Positions 4,009 through 52,795 of a stretch of DNA of 64,000 bases are shown here, piece by piece. The stretch is taken from assembly GCA_030390025.1 (NCBI GenBank), contig CM059431.1, positions 100,132,001 through 100,196,000 on the forward strand, given 5' to 3'. The DNA comes from Squalus acanthias. Its lineage: Eukaryota. The notes under the pieces were generated by a model, which was given only the letters and a program-made list of their open reading frames with translations, did not search any database and was not told the DNA's origin. Each line of letters begins with the position of its first letter. The stretch's first letter is position 1. The translations under genes were made by a program, and so were the position numbers.

Positions 4009-4098
4009 TAACAGATAATTGTGTACTTTAATTAAAGGGATGTCTCAATGCGCAAGTCTGGGAGCAGAGAGTCCATGGGTAAATATTTATCTGGTGCA

Positions 4099-6510: not shown

Positions 6511-7280
<770 letters not shown>

Positions 7281-8374: not shown

Positions 8375-9157
<783 letters not shown>

Positions 9158-17220: not shown

Positions 17221-17346
17221 ATCCCTTTATTATGGGAAGAAAAATAGATGTTGAAATAGTTACAGGTGGATTTAAACCCGGACCCAAAGGACAGTCTACC
17301 ATTCAGTTGTCCATAGTGTAACAATGATCAGGCCAGAATTCCTTGG

Positions 17347-22650: not shown

Positions 22651-23104
22651 ACATTGTGGAGCTCAGGAAGGAGAGCTACACTTGATAGCCGGCTGTGCTG
22701 TACCTGACTCCGAGTCCTCAATACAGACAGTCGGTACAGAGAGAACGTTTCCACTAGTGGAGAAAAGCGTAACTAGAGGCCATCAATATAAGATAGTCAC
22801 CAAGAAATCCAAAAGGGAAAAAGTTCAAGTTCTTTACAGTAACATCACTTGTTGTGCTGAGCACAAACATTCACAAAGGGAGACAATACTGATCTGACCT
22901 TGTTGTCACTTCTGAAAATACGGTTTTTGCAATCTGTATGAATACAAAAGGTTCATGTTTCTCGAGCACAATTAATTTGCTTGTTGCAAATGTTCTCCTG
23001 CTTTAAATAGAAGAAAAGTTTAACTGTAATCAGAGAACCATTATTCCTCTCGCGCAATCTGAATTAATTTTATCTTTTCTTTATTTGATAGTAAGCACAC
23101 AAGA

Positions 23105-27021: not shown

Positions 27022-28690
27022 ATAGAATCAGAGAATGATACAGCACAGAAGGAGGCCATTCGGCCCATTGTGCCTGTGCCGGCTCTTTGAAAGAGCTCTC
27101 CAATTAGTCCCACTCCCCCCTGCTCTTTCCCCACAGCCCTGTAAATTTTTCCTTTTCTAGTATTTATCCAATTCCCTTTTGAAAGTTACTATTGAATCTG
27201 CTTCCACCGCCCTTTCAAGTGGCACATTCCAGATCACAACAACTCACTGCGTAAAAAAACTTATCCTCCTCTCCCCCTCTGGTTCTTTTGCCAATTGCCT
27301 TAAATCTGTGTCCTCTGGTTACCGACCCTCCTGCCACTGGAAACAGTTTCTCCTTCATAATTTTGAAAACCTCTGTTAAATCTCCTCTTAACCTTCTCTG
27401 CTCTAAGGAGAACAGCCCCAGCTTCCCCAGTCTCTCCACATAACTGAAGTTCCTCCTCCCTGAGGATGTAACTAGTGGAGTAGACCAAGGGGAACCGGTA
27501 GATGTGGTGTATCTGGATTTTCAGAAGGCCTTCGATAAGGTCCCACACAAGAGGTTGGTGAACAAAATTAGGGTACATGGAATTGGGGTAATATACTAGC
27601 ATGGATTGAGAATTGGTTAACAGACAGAAAACAAAGAGTAGGAATAAAAGGGTCTGTTTCAGGATGGCGACTAGTCGGGTACCGCAAGGATCGGTGCTTG
27701 GGCCCCAGCTATTCACAATCTATATCAATGATTTGGATGAGGGGACTAAATGCAATATTTCCAAATTTGCTGATGATACAAAGCTAGGTGGCAGTGTCAG
27801 TTGTGAAGAGGATGTGAAGAGGCTTCAAGGGGATCTCGACAGGCTCAGTGAGTGGGCGAGAACATGGCAGATGGAATATAATGTGAATAAATGTGAAGTT
27901 ATCCACTTTGGTAGAAAAAACAAAGGCAGAGTATTTCCTAAATGGTGAAAGATTGGAGAATGCAGATGCTCAAAGGGACCTGGGTGTCCTTGTACATGAG
28001 TCACTGAAAGTGAATGTGCAGGTGCAGCAAGCCATTAGGAAGGCAAATGGTATGCTGGCCTTCATTACAAGAGGATTTGAGTACAGGAGCAAAGAAGTCT
28101 TACTCCAATTATATAGGGCCTTGGTGAGACCACACCTGGAGTACTGTGTACAGTTTTGGTCTCCTTACCTAAGGAAGGATATACTTGCCACAGAGGGAGT
28201 GCAACGAAGATTCATGAGATTGATTCCTGGGATGGCGGGACTGTCGTATGAGAAGAGATTGAGTAAACTAGGCCTGTATTCTCTTGAATTCAGAAGAATG
28301 AGAGGGGATCTCATTGAAGCATACAAAATTATTACAGGGCTTGATAGGGTGGATGCTGGGAGAATGTTTCCCTTGGCTTGGGAGTCTAGAACCAGGGACC
28401 ACAACCTCAGGATAAAGGGTAGGCCATTCAGGACTGAGATGAGGAGAAATTTCTTCACACAGAGGGTGGTGAATCTTTGGAATTCTCTACCCCAGAGGGC
28501 TGTGGAGGCTCAGTCATTGGGTATATTCAAAACAGAAGTCGATAGATTTCTGACTAGTAAGGGCATCAAGGGATATGGCGATAAGGCCGGTGAATGGAGT
28601 TGAGGCAGAAGATCAGCCATGATCTCATTGAATGGCGGAGCAGGCTCGAAGGGCCGAATGGCCTACTCCTGCTCCTATTTCTTATGTTCC
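27022..28690. mobile_element. Back-to-back CR1 fragments (27022-27460 minus; 27461-28690 plus, RT to 3' end)
   Basis: VPQGSVLGP, FADD, VRPHLEYCVQFWSP; frameshifted. Confidence 0.9.
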
Positions 28691-29485: not shown

Positions 29486-29632
29486 GCAAGTGTTATCACT
29501 AAAGACGCTGACCTATATGATGAATGGTGTAATGTGGATGATGAGCCTTGGAATCAACCTGAAACTGATTCTGTCCATCTCGGTGCTGGCCATAGTGCCC
29601 ACTGTGAATGGTGCATTAGATGTGTCTCCTGG

Positions 29633-30765
29633 GGTCAGTCAGTGGCTCAGTGGATATCACTCTCGCCTCGGAGTCAGAAGGTTATGGGTTCAAGCCCCAC
29701 TCCAGAGACTTGAGCACAAAAATCTGAGCTGACACTCCAGTGCAGTACTGCGGGAGTGCCGCACTGTCGGAGGGGCAGTACTGAGGGAGCACTGCACTGT
29801 CGGAGGGGCAGTACTGAGGGAGTGCTGCACTGTCGGAGGGGCAGTCCTTAGGGAGAGCTGCACTGTCGGAGGGGCAGTACTTAGGGAGAGCTGCACTGTC
29901 GGAGGGGCAGTACTGAGGGAGCGCTGCACTGTCGGAGGGGCAGTACTTAGGGAGCGCCGCACTGTCGGAGGGGCAGTACTGAGGGAGCGCCGCACTGTCG
30001 GAGGGGCAGTACTGAGGGAGCGCCGCACTGTCGGAGGGGCAGTACTGAGGGAGCGCCGCACTGTCGGAGGGGCAGTACTGAGGGAGCGCCGCACTGTCGG
30101 AGGGGCAGTACTGAGGGAGCGCCGCACTGTCGGAGGGGCAGTACTGAGGGAGCGCCGCACTGTCGGAGGGGCAGTACTGAGGGAGCGCCGCACTGTCGGA
30201 GGGGCAGTACTGAGGGAGCGCCGCACTGTCGGAGGGGCAGTACTGAGGGAGCGGCGCACTGTCGGAGGGGCAGTACTGAGGGAGTGCTGCACTGTCGGAG
30301 GGGCAGTACTGAGGGAGCGCCGCACTGTCGGAGGGGCAGTACTGAGGGAGCGGCGCACTGTCGGAGGGGCAGTACTGAGGGAGGGCCGCATTGTCGGAGG
30401 GGCAGTACTGAGGGAGCGCCGCACTGTCGGAGGTGCCATCTTTCGGATAAGACGTTAAACCGAGGCCCCGTCTGCTCTCTCAGGTGGACGTAAAAGATCC
30501 CATGGCACTATTTTGAAGAAGAGCAGGGGAGTTCTCCTCGGTGTCCTGGCCAATATTTATCCCTCAACCAACATCACTGAAAAAAACAGATGATCTGGTC
30601 ATTATCACATTGCTGTTTGTGGGAGCTTGCTGTGCGCAAATTAGCTGCCGCGTTTCCTACATTACAACAGTGACTACACTTCAAAAGTACTTCATTGGCT
30701 GTGAAGCGCTTTGAGACGTCCTGAGGTCATGAAAGGCGCTATAGAAATGCAAGTTATTTCTTTAT
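29633..30765 (+). mobile_element. Full-length DeuSINE with about 21 33-bp units (29741-30433)
   Basis: A box TGGCTCAGTGG 29643-29653, B box GGTTCAAGCCC 29687-29697, array, Deu domain, tail. Confidence 0.9.
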
Positions 30766-30780: not shown

Positions 30781-31349
30781 GGGGGGTAATTTTAACTTTT
30801 CTCACCGGATGTAAAATGGGTGATAATGAGTCGGGGGTGGGGGGTGGTGAGGTGATAGTGAATCGAATGGAGCTGATCGGGGGGTAGGTGATGGTGGGTG
30901 GGGTAGAGGAGGCGGTGATCGGGGGGGGGTTAGGTGATCGAGGGGGGTAGGTGATGGTGGGTGGGGTAGAGGAGGAGGTGATCGGGGGGGTAGGTGATGG
31001 TGGGTGGGGTAGAAGAGGAGGTGATCGGGGGGGTCGGTGATGGTGGGTGGGGTAGAGGAGGAGGTGATCGGGGGGGTAGGTGATGGTGGGTGGGGTAGAG
31101 GAGGAGGTGATCGGGGGGGTAGGTGATGGTGGGTGGGGTAGAGGAGGAGGTGATCGGTGGGGTAGGTGATGGTGGGTGGGGTAGAGGAGGAGGTGATCGG
31201 GGGGGGGGGGGGTAGGTGATGGTGGGTGGGGTAGAGGAGGAGGTGACCGGGGGGGTAGGTGATGGTGGGTGGGGTAGAGGAGGTGATGGTGAATCGGGTG
31301 TAAAATGGGCAGCTGATTCCTCCCAGTGTTAAAAGTTACATTTTGCCCC
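30781..31349. mobile_element. Harbinger-type MITE filled by a G-rich ~43-bp minisatellite (about 30873-31290)
   Basis: Imperfect TIR GGGGTAATTTTAACTTTT / AAAAGTTACATTTTGCCCC; about 9 units of GTAGGTGATGGTGGGTGGGGTAGAGGAGGAGGTGATCGGGGGG. Confidence 0.7.
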
Positions 31350-32245: not shown

Positions 32246-33412
32246 CGTCAGCCGTGGCCCCGTGGGTAGCACTCCCGCCTCTGAGTTAGAAGGTTGTGGG
32301 TTCAAGTCCCACTCCAGGGACTTGAGCACAGAAAGCTAGATTGACACTCCAGTGCAGTACTGAGGGAGCACCGCACTGTCGGAGGGGCAGTACTGAGGGA
32401 GCACTGCACTATCGGAGGGGCAGTACTGAGGGAGCGCCGCACTGTCGGAGGGGCAGTGCTGAGGGAGCGCCGCACTGTCGGAGGGGCAGTGCTGAGGGAG
32501 CGCCGCACTGTCGGAGGGGCAGTACTGAGGGAACGCCGCACTGTCGGAGGGGCAGTACTGAGGGAACGCCGCACTGTCGGAGGGGCAGTACCGAGGGAGC
32601 GCCGCACTGTCGGAGGGGCAGTACCGAGGGAGCGCCGCACTGTCGGAGGGGCAGTACCGAGGGAGCGCTGCACTGTCGGAGGGGCAGTACTGAGGGAGCG
32701 CCGCACTGTCGGAGGGGCAGTACTGAGGGAGCGCCGCACTGTCGGAGGGGCGGTACTGAGGGAGCGCCGCACTGAGGGAGCGCCGCACTGTTGGAGGGGC
32801 AGTACTGAGGGAGCGCCGCACTGTCGGAGGGGTAGTACTGAGGGAGCGCCGCACTGTCGGAGGGGTAGTACTGAGGGAGCGCCGCACTGTCAGAGGGGCA
32901 GTACTGAGGGAGCGCCACACTGTCGGAGGAGCAGTACTGAGGGAGCGCCGCACTGTCGGAGGGGTAGTACTGAGGGAGCGCCGTACTGTCAGAGGGGCAG
33001 TACTGAGGGAGCGCGGCACTGTCGGAGGGGCAGTACTGAGGGAGCGCGGCACTGTCGGAGGGGCAGTACTGAGGGAGCGCGGCACTGTCAGAGGTTCCAT
33101 CTTTCAGATGAGACGTTAAACCGAGGCCCCGTCTGCTCTCTCAAGTGGGTGTAAAAGATCCCATGGCACTATTTCGAAGACAGCAGGGGAGTTATCCCCG
33201 GTGTCCTGGCCAATATTTATCCCGCAATCAACATAATAAAAAACAGATGATCTGGTCATTATCTCATTGCTGTTCGTGGGACCTTGCTGTGCGCAAATTG
33301 GCTGCCGTGTTTCCTACACTACAACAGTGACTACACTTCAAAAATACTTCATTGGCTGTGTGGCGCTTTGGGACGTCCTGAGGTCGTGAAAGGCGCTGGA
33401 GAAATGCAAGTC
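32246..33412 (+). mobile_element. Full-length DeuSINE with about 22 33-bp units (32352-33093)
   Basis: B box GGTTCAAGTCC, array, Deu domain, tail. Confidence 0.9.
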
Positions 33413-35526: not shown

Positions 35527-36510
35527 TACTGTCGCCAACTCTGGTTGGCCGAATTCCTGCCGGCTTCATCACATGATCTCCCACCTCACCCGCTCAAACG
35601 GCCTTCCCCCCCGCCCCCGCCCCCAGCCCCCATCTCCAATATTTCAATAAACAAAAGTGTACAAAGAAAATGGGAAATAAACACTTTTTTTAATACTCCT
35701 TATGACTTTTTTCTCCCTTGGTTTTTCTCGCAGCCGTGTCCTCGAGATTGGCCCGGATTTTCCGGGGCCTGTGACCGGGTACGTGGCCGAAAGGACCTCC
35801 CAAGTTCCGGGTTCAGGTGACGCTGCGCATGCACGGAACCTGCGATCTGTCAGGAATCTTCTTGACGGATCCTCCACATCCCCGTAAATGGGCATTCGCT
35901 GGCGGAGAGTCGGGCTATTCCGACTCTTGCCCGAGGAATACCCGTGAAACTCTTATGCCTGGTAAAAGCAGGCGTGGGGCCACCTTTTACCAGCGTGAGG
36001 GTGAAAATAAATATGAAAATAAACATTTTAAAAATCATTTTAACATTCCAAAATCTGTAAAATAAGTTTCTGTTATTTTTGGCCCCTTGAAAAATGTTTA
36101 CATTTATTTTTCAAAAAATTAACTTTTTGTTTTAAATGTTTAATTAAATTGTATTTTAATTAATTTTAAACATGTGGTGATATTTTTTTATTTCAGTGTT
36201 GAGATGTATTTTTTGGGTGATTCCTATTCATGCTTATGGTGATTCCGTACGTAAATGGAATCACCCTTTGTGATTGGTTGGGCCGGCCCAGGTGATCCCA
36301 GGGCGCTTGCGAACCGCCTGCGCCCCTGGGATACCTGGGCCTCTACGCAGGCCTACGCCCACAGGCCCAGGAGCGCGTGTCTCCGTGGATCCAGGTCCAT
36401 CGGGTAGGTGCGGAGTTTTATTGCAGTTCGGGGGCATCCGCCTGCAAATTCAGGCCCGTTGACCTTTAATTCCTGGAGACTACAGGACAGTCCGGGAGGG
36501 TTGGCAATTC
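35527..36510. mobile_element. GGGTTGCCA-TIR element interrupted by a Harbinger-type MITE (about 35748-36457)
   Basis: Outer ends GTCGCCAACTCTGGTTGG...GGAGGGTTGGCAA; inner imperfect TIR GGCCCGGATTTT / AAATTCAGGCCC; inner element shares motifs with 5772-6411. Confidence 0.7.
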
Positions 36511-36614
36511 CTCGCCGCAGTGCAAGCAGCAAGTGCAAAGAGGGCCTGGGAGCAAACCTCTCTGGATCGTGCTAATAACACCCACACCCCCCCCCTTCCA
36601 TTGTCTCAAGGATT

Positions 36615-37376
36615 GGCCCAGAAATTCGCGTGTCTGGCTTGCCGCGGGGGTAAGGATCGCGCGCGCTCTTACCCACCGCGCCTGCCGTTGTGTTTTGGGC
36701 CCACAGGAACTTCGGGTCCCGGGCCTCTCCCAAGTGCCGGCGCGCAGTGCTTGCGTGTTCCAGGGGCGCAGTTAGTGCGATGCGACCCCTGGGATCACGT
36801 GGGCCATGGAGAGCCAATGGCAGCAGACCATCTTTCATTCATAGATTTGACAGGAGACCTGTCAAATCTGTGAATTGAAATCGGCCCCAAAAGAACAGCT
36901 AAACTTAAAATAAATTTTTTTTTAAAAACCATCACATTTATAAAATAACTATAGTTAAATAAATTAACCACTTTAAACAAAAATTTTAATTTTTGAAAAA
37001 ATTAAAATACTTTTTAAAAGTTATAAAAATAAACTTACCTTTCTTTAAAGTATCTAAAGATAAACCTGTTGAAAAAATTTTTAATTATACTTAATTAACC
37101 ACTTACCTTGTTCAAAAGGGGTCTTGCGCCTCCTTTTTATTAGCGTAGAATCTTCAATACTTACCCTCGCGTAGAAACCTGAAAAAAAATCTAAGTGTGC
37201 TGCGTGCGCGCAGCCTCTAGCACGCACGCGGTTCACCTAGGAACTGCCCACTTCACCATACCGGAAGTTCCGGTTTCCCACGCATGCGCAGTGCATGCAG
37301 GAAACCGGCACTTCGGGAAGCAATACGGGTGAGTACGGACTGTGTACTCACCCGGGAAGGGCCGAATTTTTGGGCC
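36615..37376. mobile_element. Harbinger-type MITE, family H copy 1
   Basis: TIR GGCCCAGAAATTCG / CGAATTTTTGGGCC; flanks ATT/AGT; colinear with 44708-45452 and 48582-49331. Confidence 0.85.
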
Positions 37377-37619
37377 AGTGTGATATTGTGAGACTACAGC
37401 AATTCTGATGGTGTCTCCCTCTATTACCCCGACCCGCTCAACATCCTGAATAACTTGCATGTTGCTGAGAGTTAACCACTTATGAACCAAATTCACAAAA
37501 ATGACATAATTGAAATTATCCCTCAAATCTCTTCTGTGCCGGATTGGTAGGAATAACATTTAAGTGTGTTGTAAAATGAAAGAAAGTAAGTCATGGGCTA
37601 TTTGTATGTATGAACTTCC

Positions 37620-38160
37620 TTAGAAAAATTCAGTTGCAAAGCCCCTAGCGCCCGGGCGCGGCGCCGCTAACGCCTCCCGCGAAATTCAGCGGGAGGTTAG
37701 CGGCGGCGGTAGCCAGTAGCGCCCCGTGGTGCTGCGCCTCCGGCGATGACGTCATCGGCGTGTGTAGCGCCGCGCTCGCACCCCGGCCGCAAACTTGGCT
37801 CCCGCCCCCGACGCCATGTCCGACAGGGTCAGGGGGGGCGTTTTTGCGGCCGGGGCGGCGATATTTAAAGGGCAGGGGCCGGGCAACCTTTTTTTTTGGG
37901 CCGCCTGCCAGCACCTGCCCCCTCTGGCCTCCTCCGGCGGGGTGCCGGCCGCGACCCTCTTGAGTGCCGGGCTCTTTAGCCAGCACCCCACTCCCTGGTG
38001 GTCCAGCAGGGCCCCTGTGCGCGCTGCGCTAGGCCCTTCCTCTTTAATCAGGGGAGGGAGACCTGTAATACTGCGGTGCTACGTGCTGACACACGTGGTG
38101 CCGCGATATTCAATGGGAGGGGGAGCGCTTCCAGTAGCTTGGGGCACGGGGGCAGTAAAG
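37620..38160. mobile_element. Truncated CpG-rich TIR-element fragment related to 34468-35283
   Basis: Shared TAACGCCTCCCG, TGAC.TCA and ATTTAAAGG motifs; internal hairpin about 37661-37705; no paired TIR seen. Confidence 0.55.
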
Positions 38161-38165
38161 TTATG

Positions 38166-39325
38166 AGTGTCAGCCTAGCTTTATGTGCTCAAGTCTCTGG
38201 AGTGGGGCTTGAACCCACAACCTTCTGACTCAGAGGCGAGAGCGCTGCCCACTGAGCCACTGCCTGACACAAATATTAAGTAAGATTTCCAGGAAATATC
38301 CAGTAAGCTATCTAGGGGCAACAGCTTATCATCGAATTACATAGAATCTGCACACAGCAACAGGCCATTCTGGGCATTCGGCCCATCAGTGCCGCACTGT
38401 CGGAGGGGCAGTACTGAGGGAGCGCCGCACTGTCAGTGGGGCAGTACTGAGGGAGTGCCGCACTGTCGGAGGGGCAGTACTGAGGGAGCGCCGCACTGTC
38501 GGAGGGGCAGTACTGAGGGAGTGCCGCACTGTCGGAGGGGCGGTACTGAGGGAGCGCCGCACTGTCGGAGAGGCAGTACTGAGGGAGCGCCGCACTATCG
38601 GAGGGGCAGTACTGAGGGAGCGCCGCACTGTCGGAGCGGCAGTACTGAGGGAGCGCCGCACTGTCGGAGCGGCAGTACTGAGGGAGCGCTGCACTGTCGG
38701 AGGGGCAGTACTGAGGGAGCGCCGCACTGTCGGAGGGGCAGTACTGAGGGAGCGCCGCACTGTCGGAGGGGCAGTACTGAGGGAGCGCCGCACTGTCGGA
38801 GGGTCAATACTGAGGGAGCGCCGCACTGTCGGAGGGGCAGTATTGAGGGAGCGCCGCACTGTTGGAGGGGCAGTACTGAGGGAGCGCCGCACTGTCGGAG
38901 GGGCAGTACTGAGGGAGCGCCGCACTATCAGAGGGGCAGTACTGAGGGAGCGCTGCACTGTCGGAGGGGCAGTACTGAGGGAGCGCTGCACTGTCGGAGG
39001 TGCCGTCTTTTGGATGAGACGTTAAACCGAGGCCCTGTCTGCTCTCTCAGGTGGATGTAAAAGATCCCATGGCACTATTTTGAAGAAGAGCAGGGGAGTT
39101 CTCCCCGGTGTCCTGGGGCCAATATTTATCCTTCAATCAACATAACAAAAACAGGATTATCTGGTCATTATCACATTGCTGTTTGTGGGACCTTGCTGTG
39201 CGCAAATTGGCTGCCGTGTTTCCTACATTACAACAGTGACTACACTTCAAAAAGTATTTCATTGGTTGTAAAGCGCTTTGAGACGTTCGGTGGTCGTGAA
39301 AGGCGCTATATAAATGCAAATCTTT
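38166..39325. mobile_element. Isolated minus DeuSINE head (38166-38270) and headless plus DeuSINE with about 18 units (38388-39000) and body
   Basis: Direct similarity to the other copies. Confidence 0.85.
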
Positions 39326-39329
39326 TAAC

Positions 39330-39730
39330 TGCTCCGTGCCGGTGTTTCTGCTCCACACGAGCCTCCTCCCACCCCTCTTCATCTCACCCTATCAACAGAT
39401 CCTTCTATTCCTTTCTCCCTCATGGGTAGACATAGAGAAGATGTTTCCACTTGTGGGGGAGACCAAAACTAGGGGCCATCAATATAAGACAGTCACCAAT
39501 AAATCCAATGGGGAATTCAGGAGAAGCTTCTTCACCCAGAGAGTGGTGAGAATGTGGAACTCGCTCCCACAGGGAGTGGGTGAGGCCAATAGCAGAGATG
39601 CCTTCAAGCCAAACCCTTTCCTAATTTTAAAGCCCTCTATCGGGCCATCCCTCCCGCCTTCTCTTTTCTAGAGCAAAGAGCCCCAGCCTGTCCAGTCTTT
39701 CCTGATGGTTGTAACCTCTCCGTTCTGGCA
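39330..39730 (-). mobile_element. CR1 3' fragment with an internal inversion (about 39425-39608)
   Basis: Orientation minus/plus/minus relative to 7600-7990. Confidence 0.75.
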
Positions 39731-40339
39731 GCTCAGTTTTCCAAAAAAAAAATTTCGTTTTTTGCTGTTGCAACTTTTAGTCTGAAAATATTGTTTTTCA
39801 ATTTGTTTTGGCCTTCACTGTAATTTTTTTTTTAATTAAAATAATCCATTGACATGTTGCATTATTTTCACATTGTAATGGGATGACTCATGGTTTGATC
39901 TTAATTGACTTTGTCGTATAGTTCTGAATCAGAAAAGAATACTCTCGGGCAACGGAAACCTTGATATATTAGTGGCTCCCACAGAGCCAAGGGACCAGTG
40001 GCAATAACCGCCTACATTTAAGATTACTTATTACCCAGGGTCGAGCAACAGATAAACATGCATGTAAACTGACATTTGATGCCAGATTTAATTGCCATTA
40101 ATGTACTTGATTCTTACTTTTATCAAGAGTCGACACAGATGACATACATTCATCAACTAAGGATAGTTGCATGCAATTTGAAGTAGAAATGTTATTGAAA
40201 TATGCTTCTGTTGCCAGTGTAATGTAGTTAAGGGACAGATTTTCACTGGACAGGAAAATATATTTTCTTGAATTGTTGCAGAGACGCATGAACACTTATT
40301 GGTGTCTCTCAGTCATCCTTTGTTTGATGTTCAATGCAA

Positions 40340-41125
40340 CTTGCATTTATCCCTGATAAGTGCGAGGTGATTCATTTTGGTCGGGCAAATTTGAATAAGG
40401 ATTACAGGGTCAACGGCAGGGTTCTGAGGAACGTGGAGGAGCAGAGGGATCTGGGGGTTCATATCCACAGATCTCTGAAGGTTGCCACTCAAGTGGATAG
40501 AGCAGTAAAGAAGGCCTATGGTGTGTTGGCGTTTATTAACAGAGGGTTTGAGTTTAAGAACCGTGAGGTTATGCTGCAACTGTACAGGACCTTGGTGAGA
40601 CCACATTTGGAATATTGTGTGCAGTTCTGGTCACCTCACTATAGGAAGGACGTAGAAGCATTGGAAAGAGTGCAAAGGAGATTTACCAGGATGCTGCCTG
40701 GTTTGGGGGGGAGGTCTTATGAGGAAAGATTGAGGGAGTTGGGGCTTTTCTCTTTAGAGCGGAGGAGGATGAGAGGCGACTTAATAGAGGTTTATAAGAT
40801 GATGAGGGGGATAGATAGAGTGGATGTTCAGAGACTATTTCCTCGGGTAGAGGCAGCTGTTACAAGGGGGCATAACTATAAGGTGCATGGGGGGAGATAT
40901 AGAAGGGATGTCCGAGGTAGATTCTTTACTCAGAGAGTGGTTGGGGTGTGGAATGGATTGCCTGCTGTGATAGTGGAGTCGGACACTTTAGGAACATTCA
41001 TGCGGTTATTGGATAAGCACATGGAGCACACCAGAGTGATAGGGAGTGTGATAGCTTGATCTTGGTCTCAGACAATGCTCGGCACAACATCGAGGGCCGA
41101 AGGGCCTGTACTGTGCTGTACTGTT
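40340..41125 (+). mobile_element. CR1/HER1 LINE 3' fragment with an open 241-aa frame
   Basis: KCEVIHFG...VRPHLEYCVQFWSP...FFTQRVV; tail. Confidence 0.9.
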
Positions 41126-41126
41126 C

Positions 41127-41563
41127 TATAGCGCCTTTAACGTAGTAAAACATCCCAAGGCGTGGTTTATCGAACAGAATTTGACACCGAACCACATGAG
41201 ATATTAGGGCAGGTGACCAAAAGCTTGGTCGAAGAGGTAGGTTTTAAGGAGCGTCTTAAGGGAGGAGAGAGAGGTGGAGAGGTTTAGGGAGGGAATTCCA
41301 GAGCTCGGGGCCCAGGCAGCTGAAGGCACGGCCGCCAATGGTGGAGCGATGGAAATCGGGGGATGCGCAAGGGGCCAGAATTGGAGGAGCGCAGAGATCT
41401 CGGAGAGTTGTGGGGCTGGAGGAGGTTACAGAGATAGGGAGGGGGGGCGAGGCCGTGGAGGGATTTGAAAACAAGGATGAGAATTTTAAAATCGAGGCGT
41501 TGCCGGACCGGGAGCCAACATAGGTCAGCGAGCACAGGGGGGATGATGGGTGAACGGGACTTG
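41127..41563 (-). mobile_element. L2 3' fragment
   Basis: WLPVRQRLDFKILILVFKSLHGLAP. Confidence 0.85.
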
Positions 41564-41723
41564 TAGTTTACCGGTCAGATAAGAGAAAGTTTGCTTTGTT
41601 TGAGGATGCTGGTGGAGGTGATAGTTTGACGGAAGAAGGAAGTGATATGGTTCAAAAAGTCTTAAAGGGGGACGAGTACCCATCGTGATTTTTCCACCTT
41701 TGATGGGCTGACCTTACCTGTGA

Positions 41724-41968
41724 TCACAGAATCACAGAATCCCCACAGTGCAGATAGAGGCCATTTCGGCCCATCGAGCCTGCACCGACACATATCCCAC
41801 CCACCCTATCCCCGTAACCCCACGTATTTAATCCCCCCTAACACTAAGGGTCAATTTATCATAGCCAAATCAACCTAACCCGCACATCTTTGGACTGTGG
41901 GAGGAAACCGGAGCACCCGGAGGAAACCCACGCAGACACGGGGAGAATGTGCAAACTCCACACAGACA
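41724..41968 (-). mobile_element. HE1-type V-SINE, 5'-truncated
   Basis: Minus strand has V domain GTCTGTGTGGAGTTTGCACATTCTCCCCGTGTCTGCGTGGGTTTCCTCCGGGTGCTCCGGTTTCCTCCCAC and a HER1-like tail (ATTCTGTG)n. Confidence 0.88.
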
Positions 41969-42699
41969 AAAAGGCAACTTTAACCGCATGATGATGAGCG
42001 CCAGACCTAAAAGTGAACTATTCGCCTATTCAAGAAGCATTGTGATTTATATTTTCAGGCCAGATTTGAACATAATGGGTGCTTTGCTATTTTAATGAAG
42101 TACTGTCTAAATAGTCACATCATTTACCGATCAGGGCACATTTATTTGATCGATGAAGTGCGCTGGCAGCAGATGCGTGGGGTTAATGCTCACTTCTGGC
42201 GAGCGAAGGCATTTGGAGTCCAGCTGGAGCCAAAATTAATTAAAACCCGATTTCACCGCTCTTCCAGCGGAAGAAACAATTGTTTTGTAGTAGTTAGTGC
42301 CCAAAGATCAGCATCTGTAAATCCGAATCACTTCACAACGTGCTATTAACAACTGATTAAATCTGTTAGGTTCTTTTTTGCAAACCCAGTCGCATTGAAC
42401 ATCTCGTAGCTTTTAACTGCTGGATTCTGGAATGTAAAATGATGAACAAAATTTACAGTTTTCAGGGTTTTGCTGTCCTTTATTTCAAAACACTTTTTTT
42501 TGTTTCTTTTTTAAAAAGCACTATCGTGGATTGTCTCCAAATATTCCACAATTTTGGAAACTCGAATAATGTAATTGCTTTTAATTAATAATGTTCGAAT
42601 GCTTTTTTTTAAAAAACAATGAGGTTTATATTTGTGTAGTTTGAAGAATTATATATAATGTGCTGATTTTTCTTTTTTGTAAGAAGGGGAAATTTTGAT

Positions 42700-43205
42700 T
42701 CATAGAATCATAGAATGATACAGCACAGAAGGAGGCCATTCGGCCCATCGTGCCCGTGCCGGCTCTTTGAACGAGCTCTCCAATTAGTCCCACTCCCCTC
42801 TGCTCTTTCCCCAGAGCCCTGCAAATATTTTCCTTTTCAAGTATTTATCCAATTCCCTTTTGAAAGTTACTATTGAATCTGCTTCCACCGCCCTTTCAGG
42901 CAGCGCATTCCAGATCACAACAACTCGCTGTGTAAAAAAAAAAAACATTCTCCTCATCTTCCCTCTGGTTCTTTTGCCAATGACCTTCAATCTGTGCCCT
43001 CTGGTTACCGACCCTCCTGCCACTGGAAACAGTTTCTCCTTATTTACTCTATCGAAACCCTTTATGATTTTGCACGCCTCTATTCAATCTCCCCTTAACC
43101 TTCTCTGCTCTAAGGAGAACAATCCCAGCTTCTCCAGTCTCCCCACGTAACTGAAGTCCCTCATCCCTGGGGACCATTCTAGTAAATCTCCTCTGCACCC
43201 TCTCT
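42700..43205 (-). mobile_element. CR1/HER1 3' fragment
   Basis: TRGHRLKVIGKR..FFTQRVVVIWNALP; tail. Confidence 0.9.
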
Positions 43206-43721
43206 GAGGAAATTTAGAAAGAGGTTTATTTTTAATGTATGTGCGCGCTTCATGCTCACCGTATCGCTGCCTGTGATTACAGGGACATATCTACGAACTG
43301 CACACATGAAATGTTATTTGGCGAACGCCAACCTTTCACATTTCAGTTCACAGATAATCTGTTCGGCTGCGCAGCCCCAGTGGAGTGCTTTGTACTGCTT
43401 CCAATCAATATGTGTGCTTTGATTTGCCTCCAGGCTTATTTCAAGATACATATTTAACAAGTATTTGACCTCGCACCAACAAAACAGATCTGTTTTTAAC
43501 ACCAAAAATATGTGACAGATTTCTCTCTGAATTCCAACACAAAGTGCGATGTTTGTCATTTTATTTATAAAGTGTGCATGTGTCACTTCTTGAACGCTCG
43601 CATTTTCTCTCCTACTCCTTTTACAAATTAGATGGTGCCTGTACTCTGGGACTTGGCCCTTCACCTAAGTTTCTTAATTAAAAAAGTTGCCTTTAGTTTT
43701 TAATCTGTGATTTTTGTCACA

Positions 43722-44610
43722 AAGAAACTTCTTTACCCAGAGAGTGGTGAGAATGTGGAACTCGCTACCACAGGGAGTGGTTGAGGCGAATAGCAGAGAT
43801 ACATTTAAGGGGAAGCTGGATAAACACATGAGGGGGAAAGGAATAGAAGGATATGGTGATAAGATGACATGAAGAGGGGCGGGAGGAGGCTCGTGTGGAG
43901 CAGAAACACCGGCACGGACCAGTTGGACCGAATGGCCTGTTTCAGGTACAGCAAACAATTAGGAAACCAAATGATATGTTAGCCTTTATTACAAGGGGAT
44001 TGCAGTGTAAGAGTAAAGAAGTCTTACTGCAGTTATATAGGGCTTTGGTGAGACCACACCTGGAGTACTGTGTACAGTTTACTTGCCTTAGAGGGAGTTT
44101 AGGTTTACTAGACTGATTGCTGGGATGAGGGGATTGTCCTATGAGGAGAGATTGAGTAGACTAGGCCTATATACTCTAGAGTTTAGAAGAATGAGAGGTG
44201 ATCTCTTTGAAACATATAAAATTCTTACAGGGCTTGACAGGGTAGATGCTGAGAGGATGTTTCCCCCTGGCTGGAGAGTCTAGAACCAGGGATCACAGTC
44301 TCAGAATAAGGGGTCGGCCATTTAAGACTGAGATGAGGAGGAATTTCTTCACTCAGAGGGTTGTGAATCTTTGGAATTCTCTACCCCAGAGGGCTGTGGA
44401 GGCTCAGTCGTTGAGTATATTCAAGACAGAGATCGATAGATTTTTGAATATTAAGGGAATCAAGGGATATGGGGATAGTGCAGGAAGCGAAGTTGAGGTC
44501 GAAGATCAACCATGATTTTATTGAATGGCGGAGCAGGCTCGAGGGGCCGATTGACCGACTCCTGCTCATATTTCTTATGTTCTTGTGTTCTGTGCTGTAA
44601 GTTCTTTGTA
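43722..44610 (+). mobile_element. Nested CR1 3' fragments
   Basis: [30 protein letters not shown]. Confidence 0.85.
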
Positions 44611-44707
44611 AGATTTCCTATCGTGCTAGTTGAGCTCCTGTTGCACGCGTGGAGTCCCGATCAAGTGTGATCTTCAGGTGAAGCTGGGTTAAAGGGCAAG
44701 AGATATT

Positions 44708-45452
44708 GGGCCAGAAATTCGGCTCCCTGGCTTCCCGCGGGTGCAAGGATCACGCGCGCACCTACCTACCGCGCCTGCCGTTGACCCCTGGGCCTCCTCC
44801 AACTGCCGGCGCGCAGTGCTCGTGTATCCCAGGGCCGTAGTTAGTGCGATGCGTCCCCTGGGATCACGTGGGCCATGGAGAGCCAATGGCAGCAGAGCAT
44901 CTTTCATTCATAGATTTGACAGGAAGAGCTGTCAAATCTATGAATACAGATCGGCCCCAAAACATCCCTAAAACTACAAATGCATTTTTTTTTTAAATCA
45001 CATTTTTAAAATAACTATAAATTACATTAATTAACTATTTTAAACAAAAATGTAAATTTTTGAAAAAATTAATTACACTTTTTAACAGGGCTAAAACTAA
45101 ACTTACCTTTCTTTAAAGTAATTAAAAAAGATAAATCTGTGGGGAAAAAAAGTTTAAATTTTATAAAATCAACACTTACCTTGTTAAAAGAAGGCCTTGC
45201 GCCTCCTTTTTCAATGTGTATCTTCTCCGTGCTTACCCTCACGGAGGAACCTGTAAAAAAAAAACCTGAAGTGTGAGGCGAACGTGCTGGCCCTCCGGCG
45301 TGCGCGTTCGACCTCTGAACCCCTTCCTTCAGGGGAATGGAAGTGCCGGTTTCCCGCGCATGCGCAGTGCATGCAAGAAACCGGCACTTTCGTTGGGCCT
45401 ACGGGTGAGTACACAACGCGTACTCACCCGTAGAGACCCGAAGTTCTGGCCC
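44708..45452. mobile_element. Harbinger-type MITE, family H copy 2
   Basis: TIR GGGCCAGAAATTCG / CGAAGTTCTGGCCC; flanks ATT/AAT. Confidence 0.85.
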
Positions 45453-45721
45453 AATAGCACAAGGAGCACCGATGTAATTCAGTTGCTTTTTTTAAAGTCA
45501 TATCTTCTGTCTTTTTTTGTATAATACTTTGATATTATGTTATTTATATTTTAATAGCAAAACTTGGAATAATTTGGGTAGCGGAGGAGTTGAGTTGATT
45601 GAAGTTTCCCTGCAGTACAGGTTATAAAGCTGAGGGGTTACAGCAGCAACACGGGCCGGAATGTGTCATTACAGTGTTTCCATCGGTAGCTCCCTTTATA
45701 AATGTGGATGTCAGAATTTTC

Positions 45722-46385
45722 AATAAAGAAAGAACTTGCATTTCTATAGCGCCTTTCACGACCTCAGGACGTCCCAAAGCGCTTTACAGCCAATGAAGTA
45801 CTTTTGATGTGTAGTCACTGTTGTAATGTAGGAATCACTGCAGCCACATTGCGCACAGCAAGCTCCCACAAACAGCAATGTGAGAAATGACCAGATCATC
45901 TGTTTTACTGATGTTGGGTGAGGAATAAATATTGGCCAGGACACTGGGGAGAACTCCCCTGCTCTTCTTCGAAATAGTGTCATGGGATCTTTTACGTCCA
46001 CCTGAGAGAGCCGACTCAGTTTAATGTCTCATCCAAAAGACTACCCCTCCGACAGTGCGGCGCTCCCTCAGTACCGCCCCTCCAACAGTGTGGCGCTCCC
46101 TCAGTACTGCCCCTCTGACAGTGTGGCGCTCCCTCAGTACTGCCCCTCCGACAGTGCGGCGCTCCCTCAGTACTGCCCCTCCGACAGTGCGGCGCTCCCT
46201 CAGTACTGCCCCTCCGACAGTGCGGCGCTCCCTCAGTACTGCCCCTCCGACAGTGCGGCGCTCCTTCAGAACTACACTGGGAGTGTCAGCCTAGATTTTT
46301 GTGCTGAAATCTCTGGAGCGGGACTAGAACCCACGAACTTCTGACTCAGAGACGAGAGTGCTGCCCACTGAGCCACTGACCGACA
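45722..46385 (-). mobile_element. Full-length DeuSINE with about 7 33-bp units (46045-46270)
   Basis: Minus-strand head, array, Deu domain, tail. Confidence 0.88.
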
Positions 46386-46561
46386 CTAATGTGTGACAAA
46401 AACGTGACAACAGGAAATAAGCTTTTGTACAGACGTAAGTTTTTAATATATTATAGATTTATCACCAGAACCAGTTAAGTCAAAAGCTTTTAATGTTCAC
46501 TTGAAGAGATGAATTTTCTAAGTTTGAGCTGGGGACAAGGCCTCAGACCATCAGCACGGAC

Positions 46562-47208
46562 TAGATCGCCAGCTCTCCAGCATTGCCCTGGAGTCTCCAG
46601 GGACGAAAGACTAATCTCCAGGACACTGCTGCCAACAAAACCCGGGAGAAAAATCATAGGGGCAATAAAAACATGTGTTTGATTTTTAATTTTATAAGAG
46701 TTAGGAGCAGGAGTCGGCCATCCGGCCCCTCACGCCAGCTCCGCCATTCAGTAAGATCATGGCTGATCTTCAACCTCAAGAATCTATCGATCTCTGTTTT
46801 GAATATACCCAATGACTGAGCCTCCACAGCCCTCTGCGGTTGAGAATTCCAAAGATTCACCATTCTAGAGTGAAGAAATTTCTCCAGCTCAGTCCTAAAT
46901 GGCCGACCCCTTATCCTGAGACTGTGACCCCTGGTTCCAGATTTTCATTGAACACTTTTGTTGATTTAGTTATAAAAATATTGGAGATGGTGGGGGAAAA
47001 AAAAGGCCGTTTGACTGACCGGGTCAAGAATCATCCAACTGGGTAACAAAGATTCGCTTTCCAATTGGCTGTGGGAAGGCGGGGCATTGTCGGGATGGAC
47101 GTGTCAGGCGACCAATGGCGGGAGTGTGGGGGGGGCAGGGCAGTAGGGAGGCGGGAGGTCATGTGACGGCACCTCCAGGCACACGGCTCACCAGAGTTGG
47201 CAACACCA
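46562..47208 (-). mobile_element. GGGTTGCCA-TIR element in reverse orientation, interrupted by a CR1 piece (about 46697-46945)
   Basis: CCTGGAGTCTCCAGG near the left end; CCAGAGTTGGCAAC at the right end. Confidence 0.7.
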
Positions 47209-47896
47209 GGACGGACGCTCAAAATTTAGGCTTAATTGTGAACTTCAATACGCGCTCCGCGGCACCTCTGGATCAAGGAGGTTTGTGTGTGAGGTTTTGC
47301 TGTGTTACAGAGTTGGGTATCTTTCTCAAAACTGGATATTCCAATTCATTTTAGGGCACAATTTCTCGGGGGGTTTTTTTGCTAATTCGTGTTAAGATCC
47401 TAAATGTGTGGGGTTTTTTTCCCGTGCATGCATTTCTGATCTCAAAAAAGGGAAACCGAGGAAATCTGCCCCTTTGTTTCCAGCCGATGTCACCCAGGAA
47501 TTGCCTGCACTTGCAGATTTTATTTTCTAAACCTGTTGTGGGAATTCAGGTTAAATACAAGGCAGAATTAATTCATTGTCATTGAAATTGTCTCCATGCG
47601 TTGATCAAACAAAACGAGGCGGGATTGTTTGCTTTTTTTTACCATAGTAAACAGACCTTTGTGGTCCCGCTTCAGCGATCTGTGAGGCTGACACGGATAA
47701 GTGGATCTGTCAGTTAGGATATACACTGTCCAACCTGAATCTAGCTCCCTATCAGCCAGAAAGCTTATGTGAAATTATATAGGTGGCTAAAAGTAAATAG
47801 TTTACTGAACCTTGTATACAATTGTATTGCAGTATATTAAAAGTTTATATAGTAAAAACTATTGAGGCGTGTAACTGCCTTAACTACAAGAGTAAT

Positions 47897-48080
47897 TTAA
47901 TAAAAGCAGAAAATGCTGGCAACACTCTGCAGGTCAGGCAGCATCTGTGGAGGGAGAAACAGAGTTAACGTTTCAGGTCGATGACCCTTCGTCAGAACTG
48001 GAAGATGTTAAGAGGTTTAACAGTTTTTTTTTTTATCAAGTACAGAGCTGGTGGAGGGAAGAACCAAAGGGGAAGGTCTA
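47897..48080 (-). mobile_element. Penelope-like element pseudo-LTR remnant
   Basis: Minus strand CTGACGAAGGGTCATCGACCTGAAACGTTAACTCTGTTTCT...AGATGCTGCCTGACCTGC; related copy at 54578-54715. Confidence 0.7.
47960..48000 (-). ncRNA. Minimal type I hammerhead ribozyme motif
   Basis: CUGACGA core (47995-47989), stem II GGUC-AUC-GACC, GAAAC (47974-47970), palindromic AACGUU in place of stem III, short stem I. Activity not shown. Confidence 0.6.
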
Positions 48081-48578
48081 TGGAGGCGGTGCAACGAAGG
48101 TTCACTAGATTGATTCCTGGGATGGGAGGGCTGTCCTATAATGAGAGATTGTGTAGAATGGGCCGATACTCTCTGGAGTTTAGAAGAATGAGAGGTGATC
48201 TCATTGAAACATACAAGATTCTGAGGGGGATTGACAGGGTAGATGCTGAGAGGCTGTTTCCTCCTGGCTGGAGAGCCTAGAACCAGGGGTCACAGTCTCA
48301 GAATAAGGGGTCGGCCATTTAACACCGAGATGAGGAGGAATTTCTTCACTCAGAGGGTTGTGAATCTTTAGAATTCTCTGCCCCAGAGGGCTGTGAATGC
48401 TAAATCTTTGAATGTATTCAAGGCAGGGATAGATAGATTTTTGGGCTCATGGGGAATCAAGGGATATGGAGATCAGGCGGGAAAGTGGAGTTGAGGTCAA
48501 TGATCAGCCATGATCTTATTGAATGGCGGAGAAGGCTCGAGGGGCCGTATGGCCGACTCCTGCTCCTAATTCTTCTGT
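48080..48578 (+). mobile_element. CR1 3' fragment
   Basis: EAVQRRFTRLIPGM..SLEFRRMRGDLIETYKI. Confidence 0.9.
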
Positions 48579-48581
48579 TAT

Positions 48582-49331
48582 GGCCCAGAAATTTGACTCG
48601 GAGGCTTGCCGCGGGGGTAAGGATCCCCCGCGATATCACACTCCGCGCCGGCCGTTGTGTTTCGGGCCCACACGAACTTCTGGTCCTGGGCCTCTCCCTG
48701 GTGCCGGTGCGCAGTGTGTGCGTGTCCCAGAGGCGCAGTTAGTTCGATGCGACCTCTGGGAGCACGTGGGCCATGGCAGCAGACCATCTTTCATTCATAG
48801 CTTTGACAGGAGAACTGTCAAAACTATGAATACAAATTGCCCCCAAAAGAACAGCTAAACCTCAAATAATTTTTTTTTAAAAACCATCACATTAATAAAA
48901 TAACTGTAGTTAAATAAATTAACCACTTTAAACAAAATTAAAATTTTTGCAAAAATTTAAATTCTTTTTAAAAGTTATAAAAAATAAACTTACCTTTCTT
49001 TAAAGTCTCTAAAAAAGATAAACCTGTTGAAAAAAATTTAAAATAATACTTAATTAACTACTTAGCTTGTTAAAAGGGGGTCTTACGCCTCCTTCATGTG
49101 TAAAATCTTCCATACTTACCCTCGCGTTGAAACCTGAAAAAAAACCTAAGTGTGCTGCGTGCGCACAGCCTCTAGCGCGCACGCGGTTCACCTAGGAACC
49201 GCCCCCTTCGCCATACCGGAAGTGCCGGTTTCCCGCGCATGCGCAGTGCATGCAGGAAACCGGCACTTCGGGACTGAATACGCGAGAGTACACAGTTTGT
49301 ACTCTCCCGTATTCAGCCGAATTTTTGGGCC
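48582..49331. mobile_element. Harbinger-type MITE, family H copy 3
   Basis: TIR GGCCCAGAAATTTG / CGAATTTTTGGGCC. Confidence 0.85.
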
Positions 49332-50400: not shown

Positions 50401-52795
50401 CAACAACAACAACAACTTGTATTTATATAGCACCTTTAAAGTAGTAAAACGTCCCAAGGCACTTCACAGGAGTATTTTAAGATGAAAAATTTGAAACCGA
50501 TCCACATCAGGAGAAATTAGGGCAGGTGACCAAAAGCTTGTTCAGCGGAAGGTTTTGAGGAGCGTCTTAAAGGAGGAGAGAGAGGTAGTGAGGTGGAGAG
50601 GTTTAGGCAGGAAATTCCAGAGCTCAGGGCCGAGGCAACAGAAGGCACGGCCGCCAATGGTTGAGCGATTATAATCAGGGATGCTCAAGAGGGCAGAATT
50701 AGAGGAGCGCAGATATCTCTGGGGGTTGTGAGGCTGAAGGAGATTACAGAGATAGGGAGGGGCGAGGTCATGGAGGGATTTGAAAACTTGGATGAGAATT
50801 TTGAAATCGAGGCGCTGCTTAACCGGGAGCCAATGTAGGTCAGTGAGTACAGGGGTGATGGTTGAACGGGACTTGGTGCGAGTTAGGACACAGGCAGCCG
50901 AGTTTTGGATGACCTCAAGTTTACATAGGGTGGAATGTGGGAGGCCGGCCAGGAGTGCGTTGGAATAGTCAAGTCTAGAGGTAACAAAGGCATGGATGAG
51001 GGTTTCAGCAGCGAATGAGCTGAGGCAGGGGTGGAGACGGGCAATGTTACGGAGGTGGAAGTAGGCGGTCTTTGTTATGTTACGGTTATGTGGTCGGAAG
51101 CTCATTTCAGGGTCAAATATGACACCAAGGCTGCGAACAGTGTGGTTCAGCCTCAGACAGATGTTAGGGAGAGGGATGGAGTCAGTGGTTAGGGACCGAA
51201 AACAATGGCTTCGGTCCTCCCAATGTTTAATTGGAGAAAATTTCTGCTCATCCAGAACTGTATGTCGGACAAGCAGTCTGACAATTTAGAGACCGTGGAG
51301 GGGTCGAGAGAAGCGGTGGTGAGGTAGAGCTGGGTGTCGTCAGCGTACATGTGGAAACTGCCGCTGTGTTTTCGGATGATGTCGCCAAGGGGCAACATGT
51401 AGATGAGAAACAGAAGGGGGCCTAGGATAGATCCTTGGGGAACACCAGAGGTAACGATGCGGGAGCGGGAAGAGAAGCCGTTGCAGGTGATTCTCTGGCT
51501 ACGATTAGATAGATAAGAATGGATCCAGGCGAGTGTAGTCCCACCCAGCTGGATGACGGTGGAGCGGTGTTGGAGAAGGATGGAGTGGTCAACCGTGTCA
51601 AAGGCTGCAGTCATGTCAAGAAAGACGACGAGGGATAGTTTACCTTTGTCACATTCACAAAGGATGTCATTTGTGACTTTGATGAGAGCCGTTTCAGTAC
51701 TGTGACAGGGGCAGAAACCTGATTTGAGGGATTCAAACATGGAATTGCGGGAAAGATGGGCACGGATTTGGGACGCGACAACACATTCAAGGACTTTGGA
51801 GAGGAAAGGGAGGTTGGAGATGGGACAATAGCTTCAAGGACTAGGGATCAAGGCCTTTTTGAGGAGAGGGGTGATGACAGCAGATTTGAGGGAGAGGGGG
51901 ACAGTACCTAAGGAGAGAGAACCGTTAACAATATCAGCTAACTTGGGAGCCAGAAAAGGCAGTTGGGTGGTCAGCAGTTTGGTGGGAATAGGGTCGAGGG
52001 AGCAGGAGGTGGGTCTCATGGACAAGATGAGCGCGGAAAGGTCATGAGGGGAGATCGGAGAGAAACTGGAGAAAGATGTGAGTTCAGGGATAGGGCAGGG
52101 GTGAACCTTAGAGGAAGTTTGGCCCGGTGGGCTAGGGGAAGGAAGGACAGTGGCAGAGGCAGCTGAACAGATGGTCTCAATCTTAGAGACAAAGAAGTCC
52201 ATGAGCTCCTCACACTTGTTATCAGAGGTGAGGGTTGAGGAGACAGGGGAGAGGGGTTTATGAAGACGGTTAGCAGTAGAGAATAGAAGCCGGGGTTTAT
52301 CTTTGCATTCCAGAATGATTCTGGAATAGTGAGCAATTTTGGCAGACGAGAGCAGGACCCGATAATGCTTTATGTGGTCCAGTCAGATCTGGCGGTGAAT
52401 GGCTAAACCAGTTGTCCACCATATCCGTTCAAGTCTGCGTCCCTTGGACTTAAGGGAGCGAAGATGAGGGCCGTACCAGGGGGAACGGCCAGGGTGAGAG
52501 AGGGTAATTGTTTTAGTAGGGACTCGGGCATCAAAGATAGTGGTGAGGGTGTGGTTGAGCAGATCGGTAGCTGCAGAAATGTCATGGTGAATGGAGGGCC
52601 AAAGGCTGGACAGTTGGGATTTCATAAGTGCAGTTGTAAGACAGTTGGGGGAAAGTTTTTTCCAGGGGCGGACACAGAAGGAAGTAGGGTTGGGGGATGT
52701 GGGTGGAGAGCGATACGAGGAAATGGTCAGAGATGGCCTTATCTGCGATTGACACGATGGGAGTAGCGAGGCCACGAGAGATGGGAAGGTGAAGT
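50401..52795 (-). mobile_element. 2.4-kb decayed L2 LINE inserted into a plus CR1 fragment (50360-50400 and 52795-53000)
   Basis: HSTETALIKV, AAFDTVDH, GVPQGSILGP, YADDTQLY, SRLDYSNALL; CR1 TTTTACGCA...GTTATTGTGATCTGG resumes after it. Confidence 0.92.

Follow-up and report, generated by a model that had tools for sequence, protein, structure and literature searches.

The 64-kb stretch of Squalus acanthias DNA analysed here (contig CM059431.1, positions 100,132,001 to 100,196,000; hereafter the window) raises the question of why a short, non-coding transposon should carry sites laid out like small exons between splice signals. Three such elements, A (36615-37376), B (44708-45452) and C (48582-49331), were found with terminal inverted repeats (TIRs) and in identical orientation at the positions given in the initial annotation, which had noted two exon-like cassettes on their minus strand and had proposed an element that either encodes a spliced transcript of its own or acts as a portable exon trap. 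The elements belong to a family of PIF/Harbinger-type MITEs (miniature inverted-repeat transposable elements), and their cassettes are probably a relic of the predicted spliced leader of the transposase gene of the parent Harbinger elements.

Splice-like layout of the window copies

Copies A, B and C (762, 745 and 750 bp, each representing the subfamily of the same letter) were flanked by ATT / AGT, ATT / AAT and TAT / ATT, respectively, and were alignable end to end, C being 86% and B about 80% identical to A. Beyond these three, no further MITE copy was found within the window. The TIRs of the window elements were 14 bp long. In copy A the left TIR, GGCCCAGAAATTCG, lay at 36615-36628 and the right TIR, CGAATTTTTGGGCC, at 37363-37376, and the pair GGCCCAGAAATTCG ... 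CGAATTT(T/C)TGGGCC was found in the window copies as well as in genomic copies. The arms were GC-rich (0.55-0.60) with a CpG observed/expected ratio of 0.8-1.25, and the core had 19-22% GC. None of the 11 open frames of copy A contained a Pfam family and no Rfam covariance-model match at E up to 1 was obtained over 36400-37600, so that the earlier description as a non-coding DNA transposon family with TIRs was borne out.

Read on the minus strand, with slashes marking the boundaries of the exon-like segments, copy A showed T8-CAG/GTTTCTACGCGAGG/GTAAGT, a 99-nt interval and TTTTTTCAACAG/27 nt/GTAAGT. Cassette 1 of this copy occupied 37159-37189 (T8-CAG at 37179-37189, the 14-nt 'exon' at 37165-37178 and GTAAGT at 37159-37164) and cassette 2 occupied 37033-37080 (TTTTTTCAACAG at 37066-37077, the 27-nt 'exon' at 37039-37065 and GTAAGT at 37033-37038). 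Copy B showed T10-ACAG/GTTCCTCCGTGAGG/GTAAGC, 100 nt and CCCCACAG/30 nt/GTAAGT, with the 'exons' at 45237-45250 and 45107-45136, while copy C showed T8-CAG/GTTTCAACGCGAGG/GTAAGT, 96 nt and TTCAACAG/30 nt/GTAAGT, with the 'exons' at 49120-49133 and 48994-49023. The boundaries that had been assigned previously were exact on the minus strand in all copies. An additional donor between the cassettes had been reported in two copies and was confirmed as AAG/GTAAGT in the interval of A (37101-37108, minus strand) and of B. It was mutated in window copy C (AGCTAAGT), although the C-subfamily consensus retained it, and it was kept in all three subfamily consensuses.

The window contained five matches to AGGTAAGT on both strands against 1.72 expected, and all five were located inside the MITE copies on the minus strand. 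In the family consensus GGTAAGT occurred three times on the minus strand and not at all on the other (0.07 expected), and none of 2000 composition-matched shuffles reached three. GGTAAG was present in subfamily A four times on the minus and once on the plus strand. Since the motifs were inherited from related source elements, the three window copies do not represent three independent observations, and it is at the family level that the motifs exceed chance. Origin of the motifs as chance products of AT-rich sequence was considered, as many weak splice-like words arise in such sequence and the acceptor-like sites (polyT and CAG) are short. With the shuffling result, the confinement of all AGGTAAGT window matches to the MITE copies and a donor position common to autonomous elements, this explanation is strongly disfavoured and its probability is close to negligible. 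The splice-like signals are real, non-random and confined to one strand, as had been claimed.

A PIF/Harbinger-type MITE family in the genome

The genome searched comprised 3.7 Gb and 40 candidates were scored for each MITE query. Copy A produced 5,625 first-look candidates, of which about 40 near-full-length copies with 91-96% identity were scored, copy B produced 6,141 (88-93% identity among the 40 scored) and copy C 6,059 (93-95% among the 40 scored); these first-look counts are approximate or lower-bound values and the candidate sets of A, B and C probably overlap. The MITE was 745-766 bp long and fell into three subfamilies, A, B and C. A total of 72 copies, 30 of A, 21 of B and 21 of C with the window's three included, were aligned, all of them best-scoring matches and not a random sample.

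The flanking triplets were identical in 46 of the 72 copies and differed by one base in another 20. ATT and AAT accounted for 15 identical pairs each, and rarer triplets (e.g. ATG, CAT, GGT) for 16. The target duplication was therefore 3 bp and AWT-biased, in contrast to the TWA given as the canonical PIF/Harbinger target-site duplication in a 2015 survey (PMC4482050). In 14 of the 72 copies one flank was ATT and the other AAT, a middle-base mismatch far above the expectation from approximately 3% divergence. Two A-type copies on different contigs, L009 and L018, had identical flanks (TTTAAT/.../ATTGACTT), which reflects either a MITE nested in another repeat or a duplication of the locus. Overall, the family is a very abundant, small, non-coding MITE family of the PIF/Harbinger type.

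Autonomous parent elements

A search of the genome with the DDE_Tnp_4 profile yielded 63,884 first-look candidates. Of these, 150 were scored, all 150 were above the Pfam cut-off, and many of them had uninterrupted frames of 384-391 aa. Most of 30 transposase loci had a terminus approximately 1.2 kb upstream of the DDE domain, and this terminus shared 78-93% identity with the final ~120 nt of the MITE; across the 30 examined loci, the ends alone were common to MITE and transposase element. Two whole autonomous elements of 4.5-4.7 kb were recovered, L036+L101 at about 190-4726 and L048+L102 at 240-4958, both ends of which matched the MITE ends. Their far ends matched the first 90-100 nt of the MITE; identity between this left part of the MITE and the Myb-side end was 75-90% for the autonomous E036 and E048. 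The transposase match had an E value of 1e-43, and a Myb_DNA-bind_5 gene (4e-11, 4e-13) was located on the opposite strand in convergent orientation, which is the canonical two-gene Harbinger layout according to the survey (PMC4482050). L058 was a 3.18-kb derivative with ATT duplications.

Among named sequences, the transposase was closest to shark and ray gene models annotated as 'putative nuclease HARBI1', with an identity of no more than 67%. The intact 384-391-aa frames and the few percent separating copies from their consensus suggest that the parent Harbinger family was recently active. As a separate observation, the Harbinger population was very large and its nearest named relatives were in sharks and rays, whereas PHIS elements are listed as absent in sharks in the 2015 survey (PMC4482050).

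The MITEs are thus non-autonomous PIF/Harbinger transposons, which would be moved in trans by the abundant two-gene, 4.5-4.7-kb Harbinger elements of the same genome. Because the transposase and Myb/SANT-like genes face each other, both ends of the parent are made up of upstream sequence and an untranslated leader, each belonging to a gene that points inward. Of these ends the MITE retains approximately 100 nt of the Myb-side end, at its left TIR, and at least ~250 nt of the transposase-side end, at its right TIR, the latter comprising TIR, hairpin, palindrome, CpG-rich leader, T-run and GTAAG.

Homology of cassette 1, and probably of cassette 2, to the transposase leader

BLAST of the reverse-complemented MITE consensus (nt 18-273) showed that the MITE minus strand was collinear with the transposase-sense strand, and what appears as the 'antisense' strand of the window copies is thus the transposase-sense strand. 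The leader match was 77% with L048 (E 1e-52; 93% over the first 120 nt), 75% with L036 (E 2e-44) and 72% with L046 (E 6e-39). The MITE and the autonomous copies had a common order of TIR, hairpin, palindrome (CCGGTTTCC...GGAAACCGG), GC-rich stretch, T-run, ~14 nt, GTAAG and a AAAAAGGAGGCGTA-like word. GTAAG of cassette 1 fell in a single alignment column in seven of seven MITE and autonomous sequences, and the autonomous L046 had the full cassette-1 layout, TTTTTTTCTCAG/14 nt/GTAAGT. Through its homology to the autonomous 5' leader, the presence of cassette 1 in the MITE is explained by descent; the cassette is inherited from the parent leader, the donor word more firmly than the 'acceptor'.

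In copy A the palindrome (CCGGTTTCC..GCGCATGCGC-like..GGAAACCGG) was located at 37270-37308 in the GC-rich, CpG-rich arm and was common to the autonomous elements. It was the best-kept block between the subfamily consensuses (3-way identity 0.97), was aligned in all seven MITE and autonomous sequences, and is a candidate promoter or protein-binding site. The subterminal hairpin CGGGTGAGTAC...GTACTCACCCG at 37326-37354 was identified by self-complementary BLAST matches.

For cassette 2, local alignment of the region in MITE A with the parent leader gave a score that was reached by 0 of 500 shuffles for L048 and by 5 of 500 for L036, while the same region of MITE B against L036 was matched by 2 of 500. 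Homology of cassette 2 to the parent leader is probable but weak, the region being collinear with the leader and weakly similar to it.

Predicted leader intron of the parent

A consensus of the autonomous 5' regions was built from 26 copies. It contained a strong GAG/GTGAGT donor at +317 and then an AT-rich stretch. A CAG preceded by polypyrimidine came next, at +736, and the ATG of the transposase lay at +766. In L036-type copies the +317 donor was lost and another donor was found approximately 48 nt further on, in T7-CAG/AAAGTCTGAG/GTAAGT. The Myb-side leader followed the same plan, with GTAAGT, an AT-rich stretch and TTTAATCAG right before the ATG. A donor was always present yet its position shifted between subfamilies, as is expected for a real intron in the 5' untranslated region (5'-UTR), and the leader of the parent transposase is accordingly predicted to be spliced. 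In L046 the leader unit ...CAG/AAAGTCTGAG/GTAAGTTTC occurred twice (416, 548), approximately 130 nt apart, which indicates that leader cassettes duplicate within the family.

The donor-like sites of the MITE would then be a remnant, partly reshuffled, of the spliced 5' leader and leader intron of the parent, and the AT-rich core with its polypyrimidine-CAG sites is probably part of the same remnant. A full-text literature search returned no description of Harbinger leader introns or of the MITE family, which is not proof of absence.

Conservation of the motifs among copies

The 72 copies had a mean identity of 0.967 to their subfamily consensus (0.936 at CpG positions, 0.973 at the others). 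Donor and acceptor words were intact in 63-72 of the 72 copies, and 15-73% of equal-sized non-CpG windows were equally well or better kept. Hence the GT/AG motifs were not kept above their neighbouring bases, an outcome that the initial annotation had itself listed among those that would refute its proposal. These 72 best-scoring copies thus gave no indication that GT/AG came under purifying selection once the element had inserted. The variable positions within 'exon 1' included both of its CpGs. The persistence of the motifs in every copy is best explained by the youth of the copies, which are approximately 3% from their subfamily consensus, and not by selection on each insertion.

This result bears directly on the idea that the MITE is a functional unit, in which the GC-rich arm would be a promoter and the transcript would be spliced at both cassettes, or in which the copies would be exon traps tolerated only in antisense. 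Such a unit is suggested by three 8-9/9 donor-consensus matches and two polypyrimidine-CAG sites on one strand, downstream of an arm with a CpG observed/expected ratio of 1.15-1.25, by the agreement of the motifs between subfamily consensuses described below, and by the orientation of the window copies. The exons of the host gene NALCN are on the plus strand, so that the motif-bearing strand is antisense in three of three copies, as the initial annotation had stated. However, with n=3 this orientation has P=0.125 at best and is too few to carry weight, the motifs showed no excess conservation among the 72 copies, descent from the parent leader accounts for cassette 1, and MITE transposition, which proceeds by cut-and-paste, requires no transcript of the element's own. 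A functional unit is therefore unlikely, and the proposal of a self-specified spliced transcript or a selected portable exon trap was left unsupported. We infer that the MITE copies themselves are not functionally spliced. The MITE is a mobile element of an ordinary kind, instructive in its anatomy, and any function of its own is hypothetical.

Evidence against a leader origin and further alternatives

Several observations weigh against the derivation of the cassettes from the parent leader. The CAG of cassette 1 was missing in L036, L048 and L058. The commonest autonomous subfamily read GTGT/GTAAGC at the donor-1 homologue, with neither a preceding AG-like context nor the CAG, so that the parent does not have the whole of cassette 1 as a conserved unit. 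The homology of cassette 2 to the parent leader was weak, and against the main autonomous consensus the cassette-2 region was not significant (108-131 of 500 shuffles reached the score). The middle 200-300 bp of the MITE had no demonstrated source. Splicing of the parent leader, and of the MITE, is a prediction from sequence signals, and the 72 analysed copies were best-scoring matches to the window copies. Finally, 26 of 27 motif positions were identical across the three subfamily consensuses compared with 20.1 ± 3.0 for random blocks (P about 0.013-0.02), in a test that comprised three sequences only and motifs picked post hoc. Motifs that were nothing but a relic in a non-autonomous element would not be expected to show such an excess. 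Constraint in the source lineage may lie behind it, either from splicing in the parent or from cis-sites for mobilisation, and the functional readings retain a low probability on its account. The earlier claim that 'exon' interiors vary while splice signals persist thus had modest support between consensuses, and among the 72 copies the signals were kept no better than other non-CpG windows.

Constraint on mobilisation sites would also fit an explanation in which the GGT(A/G)AG(T) words are binding sites of the Myb-like protein or the transposase, arranged as subterminal repeats, and their likeness to donors is incidental. Conservation between subfamilies is expected of such sites, and in subfamily A GGTAAG/GGTGAG formed the arms of both subterminal hairpins (36648-36674 and 37326-37354). 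In subfamily B and in the autonomous copies the hairpin arms were not GGTRAG (GTGCAAGG, GAGAGTAC), which lowers the standing of GGTRAG as a binding word. Moreover, the three core sites fit the extended donor consensus (A/G)G/GTAAGT and had no longer word in common, and all of them were on the transposase-sense strand at the leader position where the autonomous copies also have donors. Binding sites are thus a very unlikely source of the motifs.

The part of the MITE for which no parental counterpart was recovered raises the alternative of transduplication, in which the AT-rich core with its cassettes and a MITE-specific block would have been captured from a host promoter, first exon and intron and would have no relation to the parent leader. 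The block, CACGTG...CCAAT...short hairpin at 36790-36880 in copy A, was strongly conserved (3-way identity 0.94 between the subfamily consensuses); no counterpart was found in the autonomous elements and it had no alignment to the Myb-side leaders. Altogether ~300-450 bp of the MITE gave no significant match in the examined autonomous copies. On the other hand, the core was collinear with the autonomous leader and weakly similar to it at the expected offset, and searching did not reveal a host locus, although the thousands of MITE copies make such a search ineffective. Capture is accordingly regarded as highly improbable. The words CCGGAAGT, GCGCATGCGC, CACGTG and CCAAT in the MITE arms resemble transcription-factor words.

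Comparison with known systems

Two-gene vertebrate Harbinger elements of the Harbinger3_DR type were reportedly described by Kapitonov and Jurka in 2004 and by Sinzelle and colleagues in 2008. The parent resembles them in its DDE_Tnp_4 transposase and Myb_DNA-bind_5 protein, and differs in the 5'-UTR introns predicted here in both genes, with a donor position that depends on the subfamily.

Introner elements, which Huff, Zilberman and Roy are said to have presented in 2016 as DNA transposons that create introns, are likewise non-autonomous TIR elements with splice signals. Their splice sites are at or near the element ends and the whole insertion is removed, whereas those of the MITE lie inside the element, 215-420 nt from its ends, and form exon-like cassettes. 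An introner-like element was rejected as a candidate, given that the donors are internal and followed by ~420 nt without a terminal acceptor and that introner copies lie in genes in sense orientation, opposite to that of the window copies.

In antisense Alu exonization the splice sites arise from the poly-A tail read in antisense and are weak, while the donors of the shark MITE are full-consensus sites that would be descended from a gene leader. Maize Ds and dSpm insertions are spliced from host transcripts, and host-transposase fusions are reported to arise via splice sites in DNA transposons (said to be the finding of Cosby and colleagues in 2021). In these cases, as would be the case in the MITE, splice sites of a transposase gene survive in defective copies and are able to affect host splicing. 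The Ds/dSpm and fusion cases have RNA evidence at specific loci, whereas splicing or exonization of MITE copies would be a prediction from sequence.

With exonized intronic transposable elements, as discussed in PMC10901741, the MITE has in common a T-run, a following AG and GT sites close by, all on a single strand of a repeat that is dispersed, and these are raw material for cryptic exons. In form the MITE also resembles Tourist-like MITEs, e.g. mPing with Ping/Pong (PMC2836001, PMC4482050), which are short and non-coding, have TIRs and a 3-bp duplication in AT-rich targets, occur in high copy number, and have ends in common with a two-gene parent (DDE transposase and Myb/SANT) that must act in trans. 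Relative to the mPing type, the shark MITE has a duplication of AWT and not TWA (PMC4482050), resides in an animal host with a 3.7-Gb genome, has the rather large size of about 760 bp and has retained 250 nt or more of the parent leader.

Host gene and RNA data

An open frame at 6511-6825 on the plus strand contained a NALCN exon (Ion_trans 1.7e-07; E 1.4e-35 to the solved NALCN chain 7sx3_A, residues 474-543), and the next NALCN-exon frame was at 8828-9157 on the same strand (Ion_trans; E 5.5e-25 to 7cm3_A, residues about 528-594). The exon preceding these is probably at 3835-4008, also on the plus strand (Ion_trans 1.4e-05, profile positions 41-87). No downstream NALCN exon was recognised by Pfam between 9.2 and 64 kb among 522 open frames of at least 50 aa, a search that non-Ion_trans or shorter exons would escape. 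Since the NALCN protein is far from complete at residue 594, the MITE copies most likely lie in a long NALCN intron after this residue.

Four sequencing runs of uncertain kind yielded 600-955 short contigs per run, in which the repeat was deeply covered and most of the unique flank was uncovered. The contigs contained no joints and were colinear across 37165 and 37178; the data resemble low-coverage DNA and are uninformative on expression.

Neighbouring repeats in the window

Copies B and C each lay just downstream of the same dispersed repeat of approximately 500 bp (44101-44581 and 48098-48579), C starting 2 bp and B 124 bp after it, and other copies of this repeat ended at 28688 and 60083. 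Its tail is possibly a preferred AT-rich target of the MITE. An origin of B and C from one segmental duplication, considered on account of this repeat and the ~4 kb spacing, was rejected, as the two copies belong to different subfamilies, differ in their flanks and are each more closely related to copies elsewhere.

Arrays of a 33-bp tandem repeat were present in both orientations at 1-830, 9380-10060, 13960-14660, 17300-17950, 29590-30500, 32340-33150, 38380-39050 and 45890-46370. Each array adjoined the same 80-190-bp flanking sequence (families D13, D14 and D19), and the arrays probably represent a further mobile element that has a satellite inside it. At 30836-31335 there was a tandem repeat with a 43-bp unit, present ~9-11 times (family D10). 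Open frames or fragments with RVT_1 were located at 11356-13461 (-), 22010-22772 (-), 27610-27945 (+), 51192-51833 (-) and 1906-2760 (+), the first of which was uninterrupted (702 aa, 5e-31). These are LINE-type insertions in the NALCN region.

Implications for the MITE and its parent family

For genome annotation, the family places thousands of consensus donors and CpG-rich, promoter-like arms across introns, which can mislead gene predictors. A more far-reaching but unlikely reading is that this Harbinger lineage requires a 5' leader that is spliced and has several donors. A CpG-rich promoter in the terminal ~200 bp would be followed by several U1-type sites of full consensus and by cassettes resembling micro-exons, within an AT-rich leader, and the thousands of MITE copies would each still carry an active promoter-plus-donor module. 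In that case intronic MITEs would initiate spliced transcripts, antisense or chimeric, and selection against sense insertions would be strong. The family would then supply new first exons throughout a genome like that of a cartilaginous fish and would give rise there to selection that depends on orientation. If instead the cassettes are a relic of the transposase leader, as is probable, the family would offer a clean example of why a non-coding transposon can seem to 'encode' exons, its deletion derivatives having retained three parts of the parental gene, namely promoter, leader exon and leader intron. The parent family would be a good system for testing whether Harbinger expression is controlled by leader splicing.

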